Virus record (IMG/VR): IMGVR_UViG_3300025671_008697
DNA length: 64,000 nucleotides
DNA from: a virus
Taxonomy: Duplodnaviria > Caudoviricetes
Strand: one strand, 5' to 3'
Part shown: piece after piece, positions 17,229 through 56,660 of the stretch
Numbering within the stretch: position 1 is the stretch's first letter
Layout of the letters: the number at the start of each line of letters is the position of its first letter
Notes under the pieces: model-generated
Databases searched by the model: none
Told to the model about the DNA's origin: nothing
What the model saw: the letters and a program-made list of their open reading frames with translations, nothing else
Made by a program: the position numbers and the translations under genes

Positions 17229-17855
17229 ATGATTAATATAAAAAATAATTTAGTACAGGCTTTCAAATTACTAAAAGAAGTTGTAGATTTTACGGGTATA
17301 AATCTAATAGATAATTATAGTTATAGAGAATATACTGCTATAGACATTCTCAAAGATTATATTCCTAGTGTGCGTAAAACTATAGGAAGAACAGGTGATG
17401 ACGCAAGTGCGCCTGAAGATGGATATTTTCATATTGAGCAAAAGTCGGGAACAACTAAAAGTAAAACAATGACAGAAGCCAGTTTCCCTGACATGATGTT
17501 TGATAAACAAACCGACCCTGCCAGGCGTGAATACATTTACAAATATGATGGGCTTAGTCTCAGTCTTTTTGAACATTATCGACCTTATCCCACTGCGGTA
17601 GTGTTTGTGCCCAAAGAACAAGTGCCCAAATTACACCCTTTGTTCAAACAAAAGCAAGACATAAAAGTGGCAGACTTTGAGCATAGATTAAATGAGGGGA
17701 AAAACATCGGACATGATTCGATTGTAGTTTCTCTTGGTGAGATTAGGCAATGCGTGGGAGATAATAATTTAATCTGTTGGCTCCATGGGGAAGTAACCAA
17801 CCCGGTGGATTTTTTTGGTAAGTTGGATCGTAAGGAAGTAAAACTAAATCAATGA
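17229..17855 (+). CDS. Putative PD-(D/E)xK restriction endonuclease
   Basis: RTGDDA...HIEQKS catalytic-like motif; ATGA-coupled to the downstream MTase. Confidence 0.55.
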   Translation: MINIKNNLVQAFKLLKEVVDFTGINLIDNYSYREYTAIDILKDYIPSVRKTIGRTGDDASAPEDGYFHIEQKSGTTKSKTMTEASFPDMMFDKQTDPARREYIYKYDGLSLSLFEHYRPYPTAVVFVPKEQVPKLHPLFKQKQDIKVADFEHRLNEGKNIGHDSIVVSLGEIRQCVGDNNLICWLHGEVTNPVDFFGKLDRKEVKLNQ

Positions 17856-20371: not shown

Positions 20372-21181
<810 letters not shown>

Positions 21182-21428: not shown

Positions 21429-21452
21429 AAAAGGCTCTCCGGAGCCTTTTTT
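21428..21452 (+). terminator. Rho-independent terminator after tmRNA
   Basis: AAAAAGGCTC-TCCG-GAGCCTTTTTT. Confidence 0.85.
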
Positions 21453-21476
21453 CATTTATAAATATAAGTCCAGGCT
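21441..21476 (+). repeat. 36-bp direct repeat containing TATAAATA, copy 1
   Basis: GGAGCCTTTTTTCATTTATAAATATAAGTCCAGGCT; one mismatch versus 21736-21771. Confidence 0.9.
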
Positions 21477-21490
21477 GATAATTTTTAACC

Positions 21491-21715
21491 ATGGAAAAAA
21501 TAAAAGCTCATCTTAAAGCTGCTAATAAATCTTACTTTTCACACACAAAATTTGCCATTGTAGCAGGTTTTGATTTGATACTCACTGGAATTATTAGCAT
21601 AATACATGGAATTATTCCTACACTGTTTCCTTTTTACGCAGAAAAAAAGATCAATAAGTATTATGAAAAGATTTTAGAATTAAAACGAAATAGAACAAAT
21701 ATTAACAAAACCTAA
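21491..21715 (+). CDS. Small membrane protein, DUF6356-like
   Basis: HLKAANKSYFSH...IIHGIIP pattern. Confidence 0.65.
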   Translation: MEKIKAHLKAANKSYFSHTKFAIVAGFDLILTGIISIIHGIIPTLFPFYAEKKINKYYEKILELKRNRTNINKT

Positions 21716-21735: not shown

Positions 21736-21771
21736 GGAGCCTTTTTTCATTTATAAATATCAGTCCAGGCT
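21736..21771 (+). repeat. 36-bp direct repeat containing TATAAATA, copy 2
   Basis: GGAGCCTTTTTTCATTTATAAATATCAGTCCAGGCT. Confidence 0.9.
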
Positions 21772-21799
21772 CACAATTTTTTTAATCAAGGCACACATT

Positions 21800-23473
21800 A
21801 TGGATGGACGATATCAAGAAGTAGAAAATCTTATCAAAAAATTTACTAGGCAAATACCAGACACACCAGAATACAATCAAAGACTAGAACAAGAATTAGA
21901 AATAATCGCCAAACTTGGATTTGCCAAACACTTTTTACGTGTTAGAGAAATCCTAGATCTCACACAAGACATTCCACATATTACCAGAGGCTCAGCAGGC
22001 AGCAGTCTTATCTGTTACTTAATGGCTATATCAGATGTGGATCCTGTCAAGGAACGCATACCCCTATCACGTTTTATGAATCCCAGGCGTGATGACTTAC
22101 CAGACATCGACTTAGACTTTCCGCACTGGCAACAGGAAACTGTGATGAACAGAATCTTTAGACGTTGGCCTGGCCAGAGTGCCAGAGTGTCTAACTATGT
22201 TACTTACAAGGAAAAGTCTGCACTGCGTGAAGCTGCCAAACGCTATGGTGCCAAAGGCAAACTAAAACGCAACTTTAAGTTAGAAGACGTGGTACCAGAA
22301 TATGCAGAAGATGCCAAAAGGTTGGCCAACAAACTGCTAGGCAAGAAACGTTGCATCAGCAAACATTGTGGTGGTATTTTAATATTTGACAGAGCAGTGC
22401 CCAAAAGTCTAATCAACGCAGAAAATCAAATCTTGTTAGACAAGTATGAAATCGAAGACTTAGAACATTTTAAGATAGACATCTTGGCTAACCGCGGACT
22501 GAGCCAACTGTGGGAAATAGAGGAACGGGACTTAATGGACTATCCCGAAGAGGATGCAGAGACCAGTGAACTGCTATGCAGAGGGGAAATACTGGGAGTC
22601 ACTCAGGCGGAGTCGCCTGCTATGCGTAGACTGTTTCGTGCCATACAGCCCAAGTCACGTTCGGACTGTGTGTTGGCCACTGCACTGATCAGACCTGTGG
22701 CCACACAGGGCAGACGCAAAGCCAGTTTCTTTCAGGACTGGAGTAAAGACAACTTTGAAGGCACCATAGTATTTGAGGACGATGCCATAGAACTGATAGG
22801 TGAGATCCTAGGCTGTGACCAATATACCGCAGACATGTGGCGTAGAGCGTTCGCCAAAAAAGACGAAGAAAAAATGTTTGAGTTCATGCAGTTGGTTGGT
22901 GATCATCCCAGGCGTGACGACGTGTTCTTGGCCCTTAAAGAACTTAGCCACTTTGGTTTGTGTAGAGCACACGCCATAAATCTGGGTAGACTGATATGGG
23001 CTCTGGCCTATCAAAAAGTACACAACCCTAAGGGGTTTTGGCAAGCCGCACTCAAGCACTGCCAGGGATCGTATGCACGTTGGGTCTACTGGCAGGAAGC
23101 CAAACTGGCAGGTGCAGTGCCCGCTGTCATGGAAGGTGGTGAAGTGGACGACTTAATGCACTCGGGTTGTTGGCGTAGCAGTCGTTTTATTCCTGTCTGT
23201 AAAGAAATACGTAGACCCGGACAGATTGAATTTTGTGGATTGGTGGCAAACTATCGTGTGTTCAAAAGTGGGCCCAAAGAATACATTACGTTTGCTACAT
23301 TGGGTACAGGTAACGGCAAGTACTTAGACGTAGTACTGCCACATGCTACCAGTTTTCACGAACAGCCAATTGTGTGGGGTTTGGGCAAATTAGGCTACAA
23401 AAACAACACAGAATATGTTACAGTATACAAGCACAAAAAATTTCAACTTAGCGAAGTGAAGCACGTAAAATGA
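21800..23473 (+). CDS. dnaE: Compact DNA polymerase III alpha-like (family C, DnaE) protein lacking the PHP domain
   Basis: RGSAGSSL, PDIDLDF, KHCGG, KIDIL, GVTQAES, FCRAHA-like (LCRAHA), C-terminal OB-like strands. Confidence 0.88.
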   Translation: MDGRYQEVENLIKKFTRQIPDTPEYNQRLEQELEIIAKLGFAKHFLRVREILDLTQDIPHITRGSAGSSLICYLMAISDVDPVKERIPLSRFMNPRRDDLPDIDLDFPHWQQETVMNRIFRRWPGQSARVSNYVTYKEKSALREAAKRYGAKGKLKRNFKLEDVVPEYAEDAKRLANKLLGKKRCISKHCGGILIFDRAVPKSLINAENQILLDKYEIEDLEHFKIDILANRGLSQLWEIEERDLMDYPEEDAETSELLCRGEILGVTQAESPAMRRLFRAIQPKSRSDCVLATALIRPVATQGRRKASFFQDWSKDNFEGTIVFEDDAIELIGEILGCDQYTADMWRRAFAKKDEEKMFEFMQLVGDHPRRDDVFLALKELSHFGLCRAHAINLGRLIWALAYQKVHNPKGFWQAALKHCQGSYARWVYWQEAKLAGAVPAVMEGGEVDDLMHSGCWRSSRFIPVCKEIRRPGQIEFCGLVANYRVFKSGPKEYITFATLGTGNGKYLDVVLPHATSFHEQPIVWGLGKLGYKNNTEYVTVYKHKKFQLSEVKHVK

Positions 23474-23781
23474 ATGTAAAATCAAGACTGCATATCTATC
23501 CCTGCTCGGGACCAAAGACAGATGCTTATATTGTGGGCGAACCCCGAGCACTTAAACATTTGGCTGCACAGTTAAATCGAGCCGCAGACAGTGTGCTGGG
23601 TTTGGAAACTGTGGACATGTATAGCAGTGACGGACATGAGTACACCGTGGTAATTGCCAGCGATGTTGAAGAGGAAGAGTGGCAGGCAGTGCCTGCGCCC
23701 TATGAGCGTGGTAGCACACCTACTACCATAAAAGTTATACAAAACTATAACGAAATAAAACAAATATTGACAAAAACGTAG
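23470..23781 (+). CDS. Hypothetical protein translationally coupled to mini-DnaE
   Basis: ATGA overlap. Confidence 0.6.
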   Translation: MNVKSRLHIYPCSGPKTDAYIVGEPRALKHLAAQLNRAADSVLGLETVDMYSSDGHEYTVVIASDVEEEEWQAVPAPYERGSTPTTIKVIQNYNEIKQILTKT

Positions 23782-23845
23782 ACAGAACGTACAATACTAA
23801 ATACTCAGTAGAAACACTGATTTATCAACAAGGAGAAAATTGAAA

Positions 23846-24283
23846 ATGGCACAATCCGTAAAAGGAACTAAAACAGAACAGAGTCTTAAAGAAGCATTTG
23901 CTGGTGAAAGTCAGGCAAACCGTCGTTACCTCTACTTTGCAAACATGGCAGACGTAGCAGGTGAAAACGATTTGGCTGCACTATTCCGCAGTACTGCTGA
24001 AGGTGAAACTGGACACGCACACGGTCACATGGAATATTTGATTGATGGTGGTGCTGGTGATCCCGCAACTGGCATGCCTGCCAAGAACGTTAAGGAAGCA
24101 CTGGAAAGTGCTATTCATGGCGAAACACATGAGTACACTGACATGTATCCAGGTATGGCAAAAACTGCTCGTGACGAAGGCTTTGATGAGATTGCTGATT
24201 GGTTTGAAACACTGGCCAAGGCTGAACGTAGCCACGCTGGCAGATTCCAAAAAGCACTAGCAGCACACGAAGCAGGAGAGTAA
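23846..24283 (+). CDS. Rubrerythrin (short, without rubredoxin domain)
   Basis: [45 protein letters not shown]; TTGACA-17-TACAAT promoter upstream. Confidence 0.92.
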
Positions 24284-25628: not shown

Positions 25629-26945
25629 ATGGATCAGCCCTGGCAAGTCATTAGTGCGTTAGAAGAGCATAACCTGCGTACCAACAAAGAGCAAATCATT
25701 GAAGCGCAGGCCCAAGCAAATAATTTGGAGTTTTTTGAAGGTTGCAGGCTTGCCTTGGACTCAATGATTACTTTTGGATTAAAACAGATTCCAGAAAAAA
25801 CAGATCAGGATGGTCCTGGTCTGCCTTGGGAGGCCTTTACACTGGCTATCACAGGTTTTGTAAATCGGGAAGTTACAGGCAATATGGCACGAGACATGGT
25901 TAACCAAATGATGTCTCGTGCTGGGAAAGAAGAGTGGAACCGTTGGTATCGTAGGATACTGATCAAGGACTTACGCTGTGGCGTAAGCGAAAAAACTATT
26001 AACAAGATTGGAAAGAAATATGGCTCAAATTATATTATCCCTGTTTTTGATTGTCAACTTGCTCATGATAGTGCTAATCACGAGTCCAAGGTACAAGGAA
26101 CTAAGAGGATCGAAGTTAAATTGGACGGCGTTAGAGTTCTTACTGTTGTTTATCCATCTGGTAGGGTGGATCAGTTTAGCCGTAATGGTAAGGAGTTAGC
26201 CAACTTCGAACACATCAAAGCAGAGTTGGCAGTAAACGCCGCCACGTTTTCAGAGCCAATGGTGCTGGATGGCGAAGTAATGAGTTCAAGTTTTCAAGAC
26301 TTGATGCGGCAAGTGCATCGCAAGGAAAATGTCAAGGCCAATGACGCCGTGCTTTATCTTTTTGATGCACTGCCACTCAGTGATTTTGAACAGGGCCGTT
26401 GCGCTGTCACACAGAAAGACCGCAGTGCATGGCTGAACGATTGGTATGACAACAAATTGAATAAAAGCATGAGTCATGTACAATGTTTGGACCATGCGGT
26501 GGTAGACTTAAATACTGACGAAGGGCAACAGCTCTTCTCAATGTACAACAAGTCAGCAATCGAAAATGGCTACGAAGGTATCATGATTAAGGACTTGGAT
26601 GCGGCTTATGAATGTAAACGCAGTCATGCTTGGCTCAAGATGAAACCTTTCATCGAAGTCAGTTTGGAGGTTCGAGAAATTGAAGAAGGTACTGGTCGAA
26701 ATCAAGGGCGCCTTGGAGCGTTTGTCTGCGAAGGAGTCGACGACGGCAGACATATTCGTGTTAATGTGGGCAGTGGCTTCACTGATAGCAATCGTGATGA
26801 TTTTTGGAGTCAGCGCAGTGACATTATCGGCAGTATTGTAGAAGTACGTGCAGATGCAGTCACACAGAATCAAGATGGTTCTTACAGTCTGCGCTTTCCC
26901 CGTTTTAAAACTTTTCGTGGCTTTCAACAAGGAGAAAAACTATGA
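25629..26945 (+). CDS. ATP-dependent DNA ligase
   Basis: EVKLDGVR (adenylated Lys), LDGEV, YEGIMIK, WLKMKP, SLRFPRF. Confidence 0.95.
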   Translation: MDQPWQVISALEEHNLRTNKEQIIEAQAQANNLEFFEGCRLALDSMITFGLKQIPEKTDQDGPGLPWEAFTLAITGFVNREVTGNMARDMVNQMMSRAGKEEWNRWYRRILIKDLRCGVSEKTINKIGKKYGSNYIIPVFDCQLAHDSANHESKVQGTKRIEVKLDGVRVLTVVYPSGRVDQFSRNGKELANFEHIKAELAVNAATFSEPMVLDGEVMSSSFQDLMRQVHRKENVKANDAVLYLFDALPLSDFEQGRCAVTQKDRSAWLNDWYDNKLNKSMSHVQCLDHAVVDLNTDEGQQLFSMYNKSAIENGYEGIMIKDLDAAYECKRSHAWLKMKPFIEVSLEVREIEEGTGRNQGRLGAFVCEGVDDGRHIRVNVGSGFTDSNRDDFWSQRSDIIGSIVEVRADAVTQNQDGSYSLRFPRFKTFRGFQQGEKL

Positions 26946-30428: not shown

Positions 30429-30503
30429 CTGGCGTTAGTTCAACGGATAGAACAAGGGTCTTCTAAACCCTAAATAGAGGTTCGATTCCTCTACGCCGGA
30501 CCA
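30429..30503 (+). tRNA. tRNA-Arg (anticodon UCU)
   Basis: CTGGCGT/ACGCCGG acceptor stem, AGGGT-CTTCTAA-ACCCT anticodon arm, AGAGG-TTCGATT-CCTCT T-arm, encoded CCA. Confidence 0.93.
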
Positions 30504-40640: not shown

Positions 40641-41609
40641 ATGGCTCTTTTACCTAATATTAATGTCGGAACCTCTCCCAACGATGGAACAGGAAGCAGT
40701 CTCCGCGATGCGTTTATTATTGTAAACGAAAATTTTCAACTTATTGAAGCATTTTTCCCCAACTCCAGTGTTGCTAATTTAGCAGCGAACATTGAGAGCA
40801 CCGGAACTAGTGTGTTTAATATTGCTAACGTTGATGTGTTGAATGTTAACACAATATCTAGTTATACTACAACAGATATTACAGCAACAAATATTACTGT
40901 TGACGTTCTTAGTGCAAACACTATTACTGGCTTCACTGTTTCGGGGAACATTACCGCCAACATAGAAAGTACTGGAGAAAGCACATTTAACCTAGCAACT
41001 TTTTCAGGAAACAGTACATTCACCGCCAATCTAATTGCAGATACAACTATTGCAAACATCGCAAATTTAGACATTATTAATGCTACTAATGTGGTTGCAA
41101 GTGCAAACATAACTGCAGGAAATTTAAATATTTTAGAGACGACCAGTGTTACTTCTCTAACAATTAGTCAAGATGCAGTCGTAACTGGTAATGTAAGTTC
41201 TGGTGGAACCTTTAGCACTATAAGCACGCAAAGTGGTCTTCTTGTAGTACCAGGAACTTTTAAAGCCAACGGACGGTTTAGCGCAAACACCCATACTATC
41301 ACATCTGATGCAAATTTAGCGGCCAGTCCTATCTATGCACAAACCATAGTTGCAAATTTAACTGCAGGAAATATTACTATAACTTTGCCAAATGCCAGTG
41401 TGCCGTATTCCAAAGGAATATGGTATACATTTATTTGTTACGATGAAGGCGGTCTAGATAACAGAACACTAACAATAAACGTGCAACCTTCAGCAGGAAA
41501 CATTTGGACTAGTGCAAATACGCAGAATACTTTTGTTAATGTTGGCGCAGAATTAGGTACGAATTCAGTTAATTTAAAAACCAATGAAATATATTGGTTC
41601 ACTAGTTAA
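40641..41609 (+). CDS. Baseplate/tail-fiber structural protein
   Basis: INVGTSPNDGTGSSLRDAF (T4 gp9/gp10-like N-terminus); N/T-rich beta repeats; TAAATA at 40614-40619. Confidence 0.75.
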   Translation: MALLPNINVGTSPNDGTGSSLRDAFIIVNENFQLIEAFFPNSSVANLAANIESTGTSVFNIANVDVLNVNTISSYTTTDITATNITVDVLSANTITGFTVSGNITANIESTGESTFNLATFSGNSTFTANLIADTTIANIANLDIINATNVVASANITAGNLNILETTSVTSLTISQDAVVTGNVSSGGTFSTISTQSGLLVVPGTFKANGRFSANTHTITSDANLAASPIYAQTIVANLTAGNITITLPNASVPYSKGIWYTFICYDEGGLDNRTLTINVQPSAGNIWTSANTQNTFVNVGAELGTNSVNLKTNEIYWFTS

Positions 41610-47360: not shown

Positions 47361-47600
47361 ATGCATCCACTAACTCCAGATTTAAGCACGTTGAGCGACG
47401 AAGAACTTGCCAAAAAAGTTCAAGACTTAAATAGACGTATGACTCAGGCTTGGAGTTCGGGTAATGGAGAATTACTACAACAAGTTCAAATGATGTTGGA
47501 AGACTATAACGAAGAACTTAATAAACGTCAACGCAAGATGATGGAAGATCTCGCCAAAAAAGCCGGCCGAGACTTTGACGACATTATCGACATCAAATGA
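47361..47600 (+). CDS. Hypothetical helical protein
   Basis: ORF; coupled to the next gene. Confidence 0.7.
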   Translation: MHPLTPDLSTLSDEELAKKVQDLNRRMTQAWSSGNGELLQQVQMMLEDYNEELNKRQRKMMEDLAKKAGRDFDDIIDIK

Positions 47601-48109
47601 GATATGACGCAGTAGGTCAGGCATGGTGTACAACTACAGAGTTGTGCGACTTGCTTTATAAAAATCCCGACTTAGATATAACTAACTTCCTTGTCGAAGA
47701 TGGACATAAGTTCAATCACAGTGTGAGAACACTATTTGCAGAGATGCCATTACTTAAAAACTATACTGAGTGGATTGGAGACGTCAACGAGTTCCATGAT
47801 TCTAAACAGAACACATGGCTAATGCCCGCAGAGTATCGAGAATTAGATATTGCGGCATGGCTGCTAAGTCAATGTACTAAAGAAGCAGAACTACAAAGAG
47901 TTGGTGAAGAATTACTACTTTATCAAGAGCGAGACTTGTTCAACTTACTTCGTTTTATGAAATATCTAGTAGATACACTTAGAAAAAACAACGTAGTTTG
48001 GGGTGTTGGGCGTGGATCCAGTGTAGCCAGTTATATACTTTACTTAATTGGTGTACATAAAATCAACAGTCTATATTATGACCTGGACATCCAGGAATTT
48101 CTTAAATAG
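47597..48109 (+). CDS. Stand-alone fragment of a split DnaE-type polymerase (region before the catalytic PDID motif)
   Basis: RVGEEL, WGVGRGSSVASYILYLIGVHKIN; ends EFLK. Confidence 0.78.
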   Translation: MRYDAVGQAWCTTTELCDLLYKNPDLDITNFLVEDGHKFNHSVRTLFAEMPLLKNYTEWIGDVNEFHDSKQNTWLMPAEYRELDIAAWLLSQCTKEAELQRVGEELLLYQERDLFNLLRFMKYLVDTLRKNNVVWGVGRGSSVASYILYLIGVHKINSLYYDLDIQEFLK

Positions 48110-49757: not shown

Positions 49758-50681
49758 ATGAAAGAACTTTGGACAGAGAAGTACAGACCCCGGACAGTTG
49801 ACAGTTATGTGTTCACTGACCCCGCAGTTCGAGAGCAAGTGCTAACTTGGATTAAGGAAGGCAGCGTTCCACATTTGTTGCTACATGGTCCAGCAGGCAC
49901 TGGCAAAACTACATTGGCCAAAGTATTAGTAAACCAACTTGAGATTGATGACTATGACTTTTTACAGGTTAACGCATCGCGTGACAATGGCGTGGATTTC
50001 CTTAAGACTAAGATTGAGGGTTTTGTCAGCACACTACCATTTGGTAGCCTTAAAATTGTACTTCTGGATGAGGCGGACTACTTATCGCCTAACGCACAAG
50101 GCCTGTTAAGAGGATTGATGGAAACTTATGCAGCACAGGCAAGATTTATTTTAACTTGTAACTTTGCCAACAAAGTTATCCCCCCACTAAAAAGTCGCTG
50201 TCATGAAATTCATGTACACAAAACTGATCAAGTTGAATTTACCGCAAGAGCAGCCACAGTGTTAGTTGAAGAAAATGTAGAGTTTGAATTAGACACACTG
50301 GACACGTATGTGCGTACCACATATCCAGACTTGCGTAAGTGTTTGAATTTGCTACAGGCAAACAGTACAACAGGTAAACTGGTGCAACCACGTGAAGGCG
50401 AAGGTGGCACAGATGATTGGAAACTTAGTGTTACAGAACTGTTCAAAGCACGTCGTATCAAAGAAGGACGCAAACTGTTGTGTGATCAAGCCAGACCAGA
50501 AGAAATGGAAGACGTGTTTCGTTGGATGTATGACAACTTAGATTTGTGGAGCCAGACAGACTCGGGACAAGACGAAGCAATTGTAATCATACGTCGAGGA
50601 TTAGTTAATCACAGTATGGTAGCAGACCCAGAAATTAATCTAAGTGCAACTATTGTAGAGTTAGCAGGTATCGCAGAATGA
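49758..50681 (+). CDS. Clamp loader subunit (RFC small subunit/gp44-like)
   Basis: LWTEKYRP, GPAGTGKTT, NAS, LDEADYL, SRC. Confidence 0.93.
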   Translation: MKELWTEKYRPRTVDSYVFTDPAVREQVLTWIKEGSVPHLLLHGPAGTGKTTLAKVLVNQLEIDDYDFLQVNASRDNGVDFLKTKIEGFVSTLPFGSLKIVLLDEADYLSPNAQGLLRGLMETYAAQARFILTCNFANKVIPPLKSRCHEIHVHKTDQVEFTARAATVLVEENVEFELDTLDTYVRTTYPDLRKCLNLLQANSTTGKLVQPREGEGGTDDWKLSVTELFKARRIKEGRKLLCDQARPEEMEDVFRWMYDNLDLWSQTDSGQDEAIVIIRRGLVNHSMVADPEINLSATIVELAGIAE

Positions 50682-54169: not shown

Positions 54170-55221
54170 AGCGACTACTAGCAATGTTAGCATTGGTGAT
54201 TGGCACACAAGCCCATGCAGACTATACTTTAATTGTGCCACAAGGTCCCGGATTGGGTACTGCTGTTTGGGCTGGCATTATAGCACAGAATCTCAGCAAA
54301 TACACAGACGAACCTGTTGTTGTAAGACATATTCCCGGAGCACGTGATATTCCTGGATACAATGAATTTCACAACAAACTAAGATTCGACGACAAAACTA
54401 TTATGGTGGCCCACGGCGGCAACGGTGTTAGTTTTTTGTTGGATCGGGTAGACTACGATTACAGACAGTACGATGCCATTGGCATGATGAACTTGGATAT
54501 TGTGGTAGGAAAACGTGTGGGCACAGATCCCAAAAAGGACACATTTAAAGTAGCAGGCGGTTCTGGACTAGAACCCGACGGTATGGCCATGGCCATGATG
54601 GTTTGTGGACCACAAAAAGATGGTAGTATTTCTGCTTATCTTGACTGCTGGAAAAAACGTGTAGTATGGGTCAACGGTGTTAAAGGTGCAGAAAAGCGTT
54701 TGGGATTTTTACGTGGCGAACTAAACATTACTCGTGAAAGTCCTCCTGCTTGGATTAAGTTCTGGACTGACAAGGCTAAAAATAACGAAGTATGGTTTAC
54801 ACATGGCACTTACGACTTAGCCAATAAACGTCAAGTTGCTGACGCAAACTTTCCAAATACACAGTTCGAAGATGTATATCAGAAATTATGGGGTCAAGCA
54901 CCTAGTGGTGAATTGTATGAAGCATATCGTCTGACTCGTAACTGGCGTGATGTTATTCAAAAATCACTATGGGTTAATAAGGGTAATCCCAATACAGAAA
55001 AACTTCGTGCGGCACTACGTAAGATGTTAGCAGATCCCGAAGCAGTTCGTGCCATTGAACAACGTACAGGACGTTATGGTTGGATTGTGGGTGACGATGG
55101 TAATGCAGTTATTGGTGAACTCAGCAAGTTAATCACAGAGCCAGCACTTAAAGGTGCAGTACGTTGGAATCAAGAAGCCTACGGTTTCCCCAGTGTTTAC
55201 AAACCTGAATTAGTCAAGTGA
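54166..55221 (+). CDS. tctC: Tripartite tricarboxylate transporter substrate-binding protein (TctC/Bug-like, divergent)
   Basis: Signal peptide; LIVPQGPGLGT, PVVVRHIPGA; adjacent to TctA. Confidence 0.7.
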   Translation: MKRLLAMLALVIGTQAHADYTLIVPQGPGLGTAVWAGIIAQNLSKYTDEPVVVRHIPGARDIPGYNEFHNKLRFDDKTIMVAHGGNGVSFLLDRVDYDYRQYDAIGMMNLDIVVGKRVGTDPKKDTFKVAGGSGLEPDGMAMAMMVCGPQKDGSISAYLDCWKKRVVWVNGVKGAEKRLGFLRGELNITRESPPAWIKFWTDKAKNNEVWFTHGTYDLANKRQVADANFPNTQFEDVYQKLWGQAPSGELYEAYRLTRNWRDVIQKSLWVNKGNPNTEKLRAALRKMLADPEAVRAIEQRTGRYGWIVGDDGNAVIGELSKLITEPALKGAVRWNQEAYGFPSVYKPELVK

Positions 55222-56660
55222 TCGCTTACTTACTTTGGATTTTAGCAGGCAGTTTATACGGTCTGCTGATAGGAGTGATACCAATTGCAGGAGTAACTAC
55301 TGCGTTAATCACTGTGTTTGGTTTCGCTCCTTATTTCCTTAGTGACCCTTATGCTGGTATCGTGTTTCTTACCAGCATTATTGCTGCCTGCGCGGCTGCG
55401 GACAGTTATACCAGCATACTGACAGGCATACCCGGGGCGTCAACCACTGCAGCCTGTGTTATAGATGGATACCCTATGACACAACAGGGCCAAGCAGGTC
55501 GTGCAATGGGCATTGCTATCTTCGACAGTACTGTCAACGGTGTGTTATACGGCACACTGGCATTTTTGTTGCTGCCATACTACGGACAAATTATTCTATG
55601 GTTTGGCATGCCTGAGTTTGCAGGCTTTATGTTAATGAGTCTTGCCTGTGTAGGATTTGTTGCCAGCAAAAATCCCTTTAAAAGTTTAATTGCAATTGCA
55701 CTTGGATTATTCGTTGGTGTTATAGGACAGGATCCTGCCACAGGTGCTTACCGTTTTACTTTTGGCTGGGAGTACTTAGGTGCAGGTGTACAAATGATTG
55801 CACTGATATCTGGCTTGTTTGGCATTCCAGAACTACTATGGGGGTTGAAAAATAGACATAAGCGTCCTCCAGTATTTGACCAGTACTGGCATCAATTACG
55901 TCAAGGTGTGCGTGACTGTATAGAATATAGACGTGACATGATGCGTGGTGGTGTAATAGGATTTGTCACAGGCTTACTGCCAGGTGTAGGTGGTGCAATA
56001 GGAGACTTTTTAGCCTATGGTTCCACAGTGGCGCGGCATCCAGATAAAAAGTTTGGTGAAGGCAATCCATTAGGCTTATTAGGATGCGAAGGTGCTAACA
56101 GTGCTCAAAAAGTGTCAAGTATGTTGCCCACAGTGTTGTTTGGGATACCAGCCGCGCCTTTTGCTGCTATCATGATGGCACTGTGTATCTACTTTGGCAT
56201 TGAACTGGGTACACCCATGTTAATTTACGACACAGACTTTGTACTAAGCCTTGCTGCAGGATTTGTGGGCGGCAGTATTGTAGTAGGCATAGTCAGCGTA
56301 GTGTTCATGCGTTACATTGTAAAAATATTGGAAATACCCTATTGGATATATGCTACTATTATTTTAGCAGTTATTGTGTGGGCAAACTTTCAATACACAC
56401 AGGGTTGGCAGGACATGGCCATGCTGACATTATGTGGTACGTTAGGTATTGCGTGTAAATATTATGATATCAGCAGACCGGCATTGTTAGTAACTTATGT
56501 GGTAGCCGAACGTTTAGAAGGTTACATCTTACAGACCAATCAACTGTACACATGGGACCAATTGGTCACACGACCTTTGTTTGTGTTGACTGTGGCAGTG
56601 GCTGCATGGATTGTGTATAGAAGCATAAGAAATAAAAACCGAGGATTAAATTATGTCTAA
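55218..56660 (+). CDS. tctA: Tripartite tricarboxylate transporter permease TctA
   Basis: GVIPIAG, GIPGAST, DGYPMTQQG.AGRA, GLLPGVGG, EGANSA, LFGIP. Confidence 0.9.
   Translation: MIAYLLWILAGSLYGLLIGVIPIAGVTTALITVFGFAPYFLSDPYAGIVFLTSIIAACAAADSYTSILTGIPGASTTAACVIDGYPMTQQGQAGRAMGIAIFDSTVNGVLYGTLAFLLLPYYGQIILWFGMPEFAGFMLMSLACVGFVASKNPFKSLIAIALGLFVGVIGQDPATGAYRFTFGWEYLGAGVQMIALISGLFGIPELLWGLKNRHKRPPVFDQYWHQLRQGVRDCIEYRRDMMRGGVIGFVTGLLPGVGGAIGDFLAYGSTVARHPDKKFGEGNPLGLLGCEGANSAQKVSSMLPTVLFGIPAAPFAAIMMALCIYFGIELGTPMLIYDTDFVLSLAAGFVGGSIVVGIVSVVFMRYIVKILEIPYWIYATIILAVIVWANFQYTQGWQDMAMLTLCGTLGIACKYYDISRPALLVTYVVAERLEGYILQTNQLYTWDQLVTRPLFVLTVAVAAWIVYRSIRNKNRGLNYV

Follow-up and report, generated by a model that had tools for sequence, protein, structure and literature searches.

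A half-size family C DNA polymerase without a PHP domain in an uncultured T4-like jumbo phage: a candidate accessory enzyme of late infection

We have identified a half-size family C DNA polymerase of 557 amino acids (aa), hereafter mini-DnaE, encoded by an uncultured freshwater giant phage of the T4-like, group 2.2 jumbo type. The gene lies at positions 21800-23473 on the plus strand of a 64,000-nucleotide (nt) stretch of DNA (the window) from IMG/VR virus record IMGVR_UViG_3300025671_008697; it comes from the reverse strand of a 167-kb virus contig (positions 26141-90140) that is rated 45 % complete. Mini-DnaE is a genuine polymerase of its family that has no PHP domain, and its PHP-less relatives form a deep clade that has so far been met only on viral or virus-like contigs. 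We favor, with moderate confidence, the reading that it is an accessory late repair or gap-filling polymerase of a T4-like jumbo phage and not the replicase.

The Pol III alpha catalytic model PF07733 matches residues 14-230 of the protein (E 2e-41; 142.7 bits against a cut-off of 23.9) and the fingers model PF17657 matches residues 242-363 (E 9e-16; 58.1 bits, cut-off 22). The palm, with its three catalytic aspartates, and a thumb and fingers of the DnaE/PolC type place it in family C. Neither the Pfam PHP model (PF02811) nor HHH_6 (PF14579) matched mini-DnaE; the PHP-bearing relative P0219 does match PF14579. Supply of a PHP domain by a separate gene was considered and rejected, as PF02811 found no match on the whole 167-kb contig or in a 484-kb relative, the uncultured phage LR756508.1, the completeness of which is unchecked. 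An earlier note on this DNA had proposed a 557-aa family C polymerase without PHP; the Pfam results agree with it, as does a structural model that begins at about residue 283-284 of E. coli alpha. The catalytic aspartates, RGSAGSS motif, OB-like C-terminus and length of about half that of E. coli DnaE listed in the same note were likewise all recovered by alignment and modeling.

Mini-DnaE carries the motifs RGSAGSS, PDIDLDF and KIDIL. When compared with solved structures, the region from residues 18-28 to about 419 aligns with E. coli alpha 314-786 and Taq alpha 386-845, and PDIDLDF and KIDIL coincide with the catalytic aspartate motifs of Taq Pol III alpha. Across 42 diverse homologues (30-87 % identical), the invariant residues are R63-G64-S65, R91-F92, R97, P101-D102-x-D104-x-D106, H189, G192, K225-x-D227, R298-P299, R348, C388 and H391. 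Among these, D102, D104 and D227 are the three catalytic aspartates and fall on the Taq catalytic motifs, and H391 sits where the FNKSH motif has its histidine, a residue described as the steric gate in E. coli (PMC8485763). Because the catalytic apparatus is conserved, the protein is apparently an active DNA polymerase. Cellular DnaE has several domains that mini-DnaE has lost, and a decoy or scaffold that is catalytically dead and binds DNA or parts of the host replisome would fit this loss too; we find the idea barely credible, given that the metal-binding aspartates, the RGS triphosphate motif, K-x-D, RP and the histidine at the steric-gate position stay invariant at only 30-40 % identity.

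Mini-DnaE stays below every Pfam and NCBIfam equivalog cut-off for DnaE1, DnaE2 and PolC. Its best NCBIfam model is NF004225, 'error-prone DNA polymerase' (174 bits, cut-off 939); TIGR00594 gave 146.8 bits (cut-off 434) and the DnaE1 equivalog NF004226 gave 134.4 bits (cut-off 1002). In PHROGs it matches only the generic phage DnaE family phrog_405, at profile positions 346-828 of 1190, and public annotations of its homologues read 'DNA polymerase III alpha subunit' or 'error-prone DNA polymerase'.

An AlphaFold2 model, generated from the 42-homologue alignment, has a mean predicted local distance difference test score (pLDDT) of 89.6 and a predicted template modeling score (pTM) of 0.89, and each of its 19 significant Foldseek matches is a Pol III alpha or PolC chain. 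VIA-align superposed residues 1-448 of the model on M. tuberculosis DnaE1 312-845 (Z 35.8), E. coli alpha ~283-817 (Z 27.5) and PolC 827-1359 (Z 29.8), and residues 6-549 on Taq alpha 305-1122, with the OB domain of Taq included (Z 34.1). Residues 472-550 alone matched best the OB folds of PriB and SSB (Z 7.6-8.4; root-mean-square deviation 2.0-2.8). The predicted architecture is palm and thumb (residues ~1-230), shortened fingers (~240-448), a short linker and an OB fold (~468-550; 472-550 in the model) that is followed by the end of the chain at 557. The part coding for the OB fold (residues 468-548), a beta-barrel in the AlphaFold model, lies at 23201-23443 (+). By this model mini-DnaE lacks PHP, the tau-binding tail, and the distal part of the fingers together with the beta-binding (HhH)2 domain.

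Mini-DnaE is not a truncated gene, because a length of 540-630 aa is conserved among over a thousand homologues from metagenomes. A word-seeded search returned 1278 matches, the best 120 of which are all 554-584 aa long and 81-99 % identical to mini-DnaE, and an exhaustive search of representatives (E <= 1e-30) returned 604 clusters, with the top ones measuring 540-630 aa and covering the whole query at 35-58 % identity. The earlier note had allowed for the truncation of a longer gene; the longer relatives proved to be helicase fusions and not PHP-bearing forms. At least 560 viral stretches in IMG/VR encode a relative. Among 185,579 species genomes, the short form occurs on only four contigs of metagenome-assembled genomes (3-42 kb), which we suspect to be mis-binned phage contigs, and all remaining matches there are at most 35 % identical and confined to the core. 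In a tblastn search of 50,697 phage records, the only close full-length match, and the sole one above 30 % identity, was a 574-aa open reading frame (ORF) of LR756508.1 (38 %). Cultured phages in these records gave only about 25 % identity, to full-size DnaE-like genes, and none carries an orthologue of mini-DnaE. Atu_ph07 and 121Q gave no match in a search run without a positive control.

Phylogenetic analysis of 432 core columns, in which the PHP-less rows comprised stand-alone forms, helicase-fused forms and others with short N-terminal extensions, separated 82 of 83 PHP-less rows from all 76 PHP-bearing rows by a single branch of length 0.79, with a support of 100 in the Shimodaira-Hasegawa-like approximate likelihood ratio test (SH-aLRT). 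The sole PHP-less exception, P0209, resembles a truncated ordinary DnaE. In order to root the tree, DnaE1 and the second dnaE copy of five bacterial genomes were added and the five DnaE1 sequences served as the root of a maximum likelihood tree; DnaE3 and PolC were not represented. The PHP-less clade was again recovered with a support of 100, on a stem of 1.2 (0.8-1.2 depending on tree and rooting).

In the rooted tree, the sister group of this clade consists of six PHP-bearing DnaE2-like proteins (SH-aLRT 100), among them the second copies of Geomonas and Desulfobacter and two Acidobacteriota genes. A Y-family ImuB-like gene, on the same strand and mostly just upstream, was present in the fetched flank of 27 of the 76 PHP-bearing cellular loci, including those of Geomonas, Desulfobacter and both Acidobacteriota. 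No ImuB-like ORF was found in the phage contig or in the flanks of 88 related loci. The best-fitting, albeit not secured, interpretation is that the PHP-less clade stems from the DnaE2/ImuC branch and that its nearest cellular relatives are imuB-linked DnaE2-like polymerases. The comparison with DnaE1 and DnaE2 that had been called for therefore has two sides, as the maximum likelihood sister is DnaE2-like with full support, whereas the affinity is not significant in the approximately unbiased (AU) test. Against a tree that groups all PHP-bearing rows other than DnaE1, the AU test gave p 0.005 with P0209 and p 0.08 without it; significant support for nesting within DnaE2-like sequences was thus rejected, as it was gone once this mislabeled truncated row had been removed.

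Twenty matches of the representative search are fusions of a superfamily 2 (SF2) helicase (ResIII/DEAD plus Helicase_C) to a PHP-less core and OB fold. They are 895-1184 aa long, with an N-terminal helicase of 370-630 aa and a core that is 36-43 % identical to mini-DnaE, and the mini-DnaE profile matches them through the OB fold. In the tree they fall among the stand-alone forms inside the PHP-less clade, the backbone of which is poorly resolved. One of them, P0172 (1184 aa), has a Hint/homing-endonuclease domain of the intein type at its N-terminus, ahead of the helicase domain. The one fusion whose context was examined, P0152, is encoded on a contig of 41-77 kb together with a rhodopsin of viral type and with RING finger and eIF-1a genes, a context that is giant-virus-like and not phage.

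The nesting of these 20 fusions in the PHP-less clade raises the alternative that mini-DnaE is one half of a helicase-polymerase repair machine with a Pol theta-like layout, the phage form acting in trans with an SF2 helicase of phage or host in strand displacement or end joining. We think this unlikely. A homologue of the fused helicase domain was found neither on the phage contig nor in 80 related viral loci searched to 8 kb from the gene, and the giant-virus-like setting of P0152 speaks against it as well.

We propose, tentatively and in the knowledge that it may well prove wrong, that these proteins make up an undescribed, virus-only lineage of family C, derived from DnaE2/ImuC, in which a mini-DnaE with an OB fold is maintained without PHP and without a clamp domain, as a stand-alone late enzyme in T4-like jumbo phages and fused to an SF2 helicase in eukaryotic giant viruses. 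If this is true, a polymerase module of bacterial type has moved between viruses whose hosts belong to different domains, and it works without PHP, ImuB or the beta clamp.

Mini-DnaE is not the only family C sequence of this phage. An ORF at 47597-48109 (+) encodes 170 aa with an RGS motif (PF07733 at positions 18-94, E 7e-8); it is the nucleotide-binding half of a polymerase, stops just ahead of the metal-binding motif, and is 23 % identical to mini-DnaE over 65 aa only. Homologues of this N-unit occur in 101 phage records (about 100 cultured jumbo phages), including Atu_ph07, PA5oct, SCTP-2 and the 121Q/PBECO4 group. Atu_ph07 and 121Q share a synteny of N-unit, gp31-like co-chaperonin and clamp loader, with MazG also upstream in Atu_ph07. 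The corresponding C-unit, found with the mini-DnaE profile, is a 193-aa ORF outside the window at G000:C1:136270-136851 (minus strand; equivalent to L186:1271-1852). It starts at a DIDIDF metal motif, holds K-L-D, IRPA and FKQSH motifs, and has no Pfam or NCBIfam match. Its homologues occur in 96 phage records, the phage-group make-up of which essentially equals that of the 101 for the N-unit, and bear public annotations that range from hypothetical protein and DNA polymerase to 'putative membrane protein'.

The T4-like jumbo phages of group 2.2 have been described as having a minimal Pol III alpha that is split into an N-terminal nucleoside triphosphate-binding protein and a C-terminal metal- and template-binding protein (Iyer et al. 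2021, Viruses 13:63, PMC7824862), with the halves encoded far apart and alongside a family B polymerase (PolB). The ORFs at 47597 and 136270-136851 are this split minimal Pol III alpha and represent a lineage separate from the 557-aa gene. The 'different DnaE fragment' earlier noted at 47597 is therefore a real ORF, not a stray fragment but the N-unit of the split enzyme reported in 2021, with its C-unit elsewhere. The possibility that mini-DnaE is itself the C-unit was rejected, as an RGS half is part of its own chain and the true C-unit lies elsewhere.

A PolB is present in LR756508.1 and in the relative G001, in which mini-DnaE is 76 % identical and the opposite strand encodes a 904-aa PolB at a distance of about 3 kb. 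The PolB of LR756508.1 was matched at 260623-262308 and 266583-266900, in two separate open frames of 1022 and 625 aa with about 4 kb between them, and may be split by an intervening element. That two relatives carry PolB bears out the earlier opinion that mini-DnaE is probably not the main replicase. Some jumbo phages thus hold three polymerase systems, namely PolB, a split mini-Pol III and a one-piece mini-DnaE, which raises the question of how labor is divided among them.

The alternative that mini-DnaE is the main replicase and relies on the clamp and clamp loader of the phage is nonetheless to be weighed, in view of a clamp-loader gene in the window (49758-50681) and of the failure to find a family A or B polymerase on the 167-kb contig. 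We regard it as very unlikely, since the contig is 45 % complete and relatives with the same gene have a gp43-like PolB. Mini-DnaE also has no clamp-binding domain and no conserved C-terminal clamp motif, and it has no proofreader at hand: a DnaQ model found no match on the contig, and its matches in two relatives are far from mini-DnaE. Furthermore, the gene stands behind a late box among variable accessory genes.

The region upstream of mini-DnaE (21736-21799, +) begins with a 24-nt element (21736-21759) that ends in a T4-type late box, TATAAATA at 21752-21759 (+), and continues as a leader with AGGCT at 21767-21771 and a Shine-Dalgarno-like AAGGCA at 21788-21793 before the ATG at 21800. A plain count of TATAAATA on the plus strand shows no enrichment (5 copies versus 4.8 expected); what marks the late box is where it lies, its preference for one strand and its conservation. 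The window has 12 copies of ATAAATA on the plus strand and one on the minus strand, mostly 10-45 nt before start codons, and copies precede the tail-fibre-like genes at 40641 and 45548. Of 72 distinct related loci, 48 have it upstream of mini-DnaE, in most cases 31-62 nt from the ATG (closer in two), versus 1.5 % of random 90-nt windows. The late promoter assumed earlier is thereby corroborated in its motif, and mini-DnaE is probably transcribed from it, judging by the sequence.

The evidence of expression consists of five short contigs from two metatranscriptomes (marine and marsh); they cover 21776-21993 and 22598-22966 at 90-99.5 % identity, and the remainder of the gene, left uncovered, is uninformative. 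Those that reach the 5' end begin at 21776 and 21779, 17-20 nt after the late box, which is a weak hint of a transcript start, as contigs cannot prove one. A late-type promoter would also suit a protein that is made late, loaded into the capsid and, once injected, active on the incoming genome. This is highly improbable in our view, given that the N-terminus belongs to the folded palm, which is aligned from E. coli alpha ~283-284, and that inspection of the sequence found no hydrophobic-x-Glu targeting or cleavage motif.

The leader contains two to four AGGC[AT] repeats in 49 of the 72 related loci, compared with 0.9 % of random windows. These AGGCA-type repeats are spaced about 10 nt apart and are conserved across clades in which mini-DnaE is 57-88 % identical, and an intergenic leader of this kind is essentially unique to mini-DnaE on the 167-kb contig. 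Some versions of the leader are able to form a CTGCCT/AGGCAG hairpin. T4 uses a translational operator for gene 43, and by analogy the AGGCA leader could possibly be a translational operator. A first copy of the 24-nt element lies at 21441-21464 (+), upstream of a 74-aa DUF6356 gene (21491-21715, +) that is the direct 5' neighbor of mini-DnaE. The repeat as a whole is a near-identical element of about 40 nt (a T-run, TATAAATA and AGTCCAGGCT) at 21441-21480 and 21736-21775 (+), in front of two adjacent genes, and has the look of a promoter-leader cassette that has been duplicated, as is seen at the borders of mobile gene cassettes in T4-like phages.

The stop codon of mini-DnaE overlaps, in an ATGA, the start of a 103-aa gene at 23470-23781 (+). 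In the clade of 71-88 % identity, 29 of 39 loci have a homologue of this partner after the polymerase, and nearly all of these show an overlap of 1-14 nt; several of the remaining 10 loci end at a contig edge. No homologue follows the polymerase in 41 loci of the 57-60 % clade, in the P0121 and P0122 loci, or in LR756508.1. The partner family conserves the motifs RLHxYPH, SDGHEY and EEWQ. Its model is an alpha/beta fold (pLDDT 91.7) without a fold match in the PDB, and the ESM Atlas returns only its own family; in one ESM Atlas cluster with this fold (template modeling score 0.71), 11 % of the members are annotated as Imm32. The Imm32 model PF15566 weakly matches 13 of 25 family members (best E 4.8e-5), and the window protein itself has no Pfam match at E <= 1.

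Imm32 is a predicted immunity protein that is paired with several unrelated toxins, which its members neutralize (PMC3482391). The weak resemblance, together with the overlap kept in 29 of 39 loci, would be compatible with a regulated pair, in which the partner would keep the polymerase inactive, or would protect polymerase or cell, until late infection. We consider this quite unlikely. The polymerase is equally conserved where the partner is absent (the 57-60 % clade, the P0122 locus and LR756508.1), and the partner evolves much faster (39 % versus 85 % identity in one pair). Overlapping start and stop codons are found between other neighboring ORFs of the window as well, for example at 17852/17855, 54166/54169 and 55218/55221. 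The 'coupled 103-aa partner' of the earlier note is hence real as a gene and in its ATGA overlap, but as a clade-specific add-on of the 71-88 % group and not as a general or defining subunit, and its link to the polymerase is a putative one.

Our preferred reading, accessory late synthesis, can be put as a working model. Mini-DnaE would be a stand-alone, catalytically competent family C core whose OB fold would bind single-stranded DNA, and its clade has lost PHP along with the beta-clamp-binding/HhH domain and the tau-binding tail. Relatives of the phage would replicate with a gp43-type PolB, mini-DnaE would act beside the split Pol III alpha, and transcription would proceed from the T4-type late promoter through the conserved, gene-specific leader. 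The enzyme would then most likely perform clamp-independent, short-patch synthesis without proofreading late in infection, for which the candidate tasks are the filling of gaps, synthesis that tolerates lesions, or synthesis linked to recombination on replication products that are branched and gapped.

An accessory status would follow from the PolB of the relatives and the split Pol III alpha of the phage. The enzyme would be free of proofreading because PHP, clamp-binding domain and tau tail are lost, DnaQ was matched neither on the contig nor near the gene in two relatives, and there is no conserved clamp motif; the loss of the clamp-binding domain and tau tail would also mean that it is not tethered in the bacterial manner. 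Late accessory synthesis, rather than replication, is argued for by the PolB of relatives, by the variable, non-replicative neighborhood and by the late-type promoter. The retained OB fold suits a single-stranded template in the predicted structure, an ATP-dependent DNA ligase gene about 2 kb downstream (25629-26945, +) counts on the same side, and a possible DnaE2 ancestry and the helicase-fused relatives may also point to accessory synthesis. A specialized repair or mutagenic role had been suggested earlier; the imuB-linked DnaE2-like affinity gives it some support, although that affinity is not statistically secured and the role itself is deduced.

Several points weigh against our reading. 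The AU test leaves the DnaE2 affinity short of significance, and the accessory status rests on two relatives, as the 45 % complete contig itself yielded no family A or B polymerase. No C-terminal clamp-binding peptide is conserved among the homologues, whose tails are not conserved, and an unconventional clamp motif may yet be present. The late timing rests on a promoter motif and two short RNA contigs. The neighborhood of mini-DnaE differs between relatives and contains no repair genes, so that context gives no functional support. What stands on direct analysis is the fold, the domain content, the conserved catalytic residues, the membership in the clade, the conserved signals upstream and the occurrence alongside PolB in relatives; polymerase activity, late timing, independence from the clamp and a repair-type role are all deduced.

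Other features of the window on the strand of the polymerase include a rubrerythrin gene (23840-24283), a TctA-family tricarboxylate transporter subunit gene (55218-56660) and a tRNA-Arg(TCT) gene (30429-30503). Directly 5' of the polymerase cassette is a transfer-messenger RNA (tmRNA) of the phage at 21054-21480 (+), which scores 137 bits with the Rfam model beta_tmRNA and 110 bits with tmRNA_permuted; ARAGORN predicts a permuted tmRNA with the tag ANDEVFALAA. This betaproteobacterial type may be a clue to the host of the phage. An ORF at 20372-21181 (HODM_asu-like) overlaps the 5' part of the tmRNA, and one of the two calls is probably too long. In two relatives the gene after mini-DnaE is a translation gene borne by the phage: a full EF-G homologue of 681 aa in LR756508.1 (L003:14232-16277) and a ribosomal protein L33 homologue of 64 aa in a distant relative (L017:3086-3280). 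DNA runs of 15 freshwater samples contain more than half of the words sampled from the stretch, and in runs X1 to X6 the word share is complete.

Among known systems, the split Pol III alpha (PMC7824862) resembles mini-DnaE in being a phage-specific, PHP-less, stripped family C module that coexists with PolB in T4-like jumbo phages. It differs in consisting of two distant genes (170 and 193 aa here) without an OB fold, whereas mini-DnaE is one 557-aa chain with thumb, longer fingers and OB fold; mini-DnaE has CxxH where the split form retains KQSH. We found no description of a one-piece PHP-less DnaE with an OB fold, or of its helicase fusion, in the open-access literature. There, PHP and a clamp-binding region are found in every characterized family C polymerase, with a single published exception, the two-piece phage form computed in 2021. 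The one-piece core, abundant and well conserved, has 557 residues including its OB fold; among natural single-chain enzymes of the Pol III alpha type in that literature it would be the smallest and, as such, a convenient object for structural and mechanistic study of family C.

Mini-DnaE is like DnaE1 of E. coli, T. aquaticus and M. tuberculosis (PDB 2HNH, 2HPI/3E0D, 5LEW/7PU7) in its palm-thumb-fingers fold (Z 27-36), its catalytic motifs and the relative position of its OB fold, and is unlike it in being about half the size and in having no PHP (E. coli 1-270), no distal fingers and beta-binding region (~818-1000) and no tau-binding C-terminus. With DnaE2/ImuC it shares the best NCBIfam model and the absence of a tau-binding tail; its sister in the maximum likelihood tree is imuB-linked and DnaE2-like, a relation that is not secured. 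Neither enzyme is known to have an active proofreader of its own. Unlike mini-DnaE, which has neither domain, DnaE2 retains PHP and the beta-binding/HhH region in about 1000-1100 aa, and it works with ImuB. The helicase fusions have the same PHP-less core and OB fold and belong to the same clade, with a helicase added at the N-terminus, whereas the phage mini-DnaE stands alone with no such helicase nearby. These fusions and a possible origin from DnaE2 are relevant to the ways in which viruses take up cellular replication modules and pare them down.

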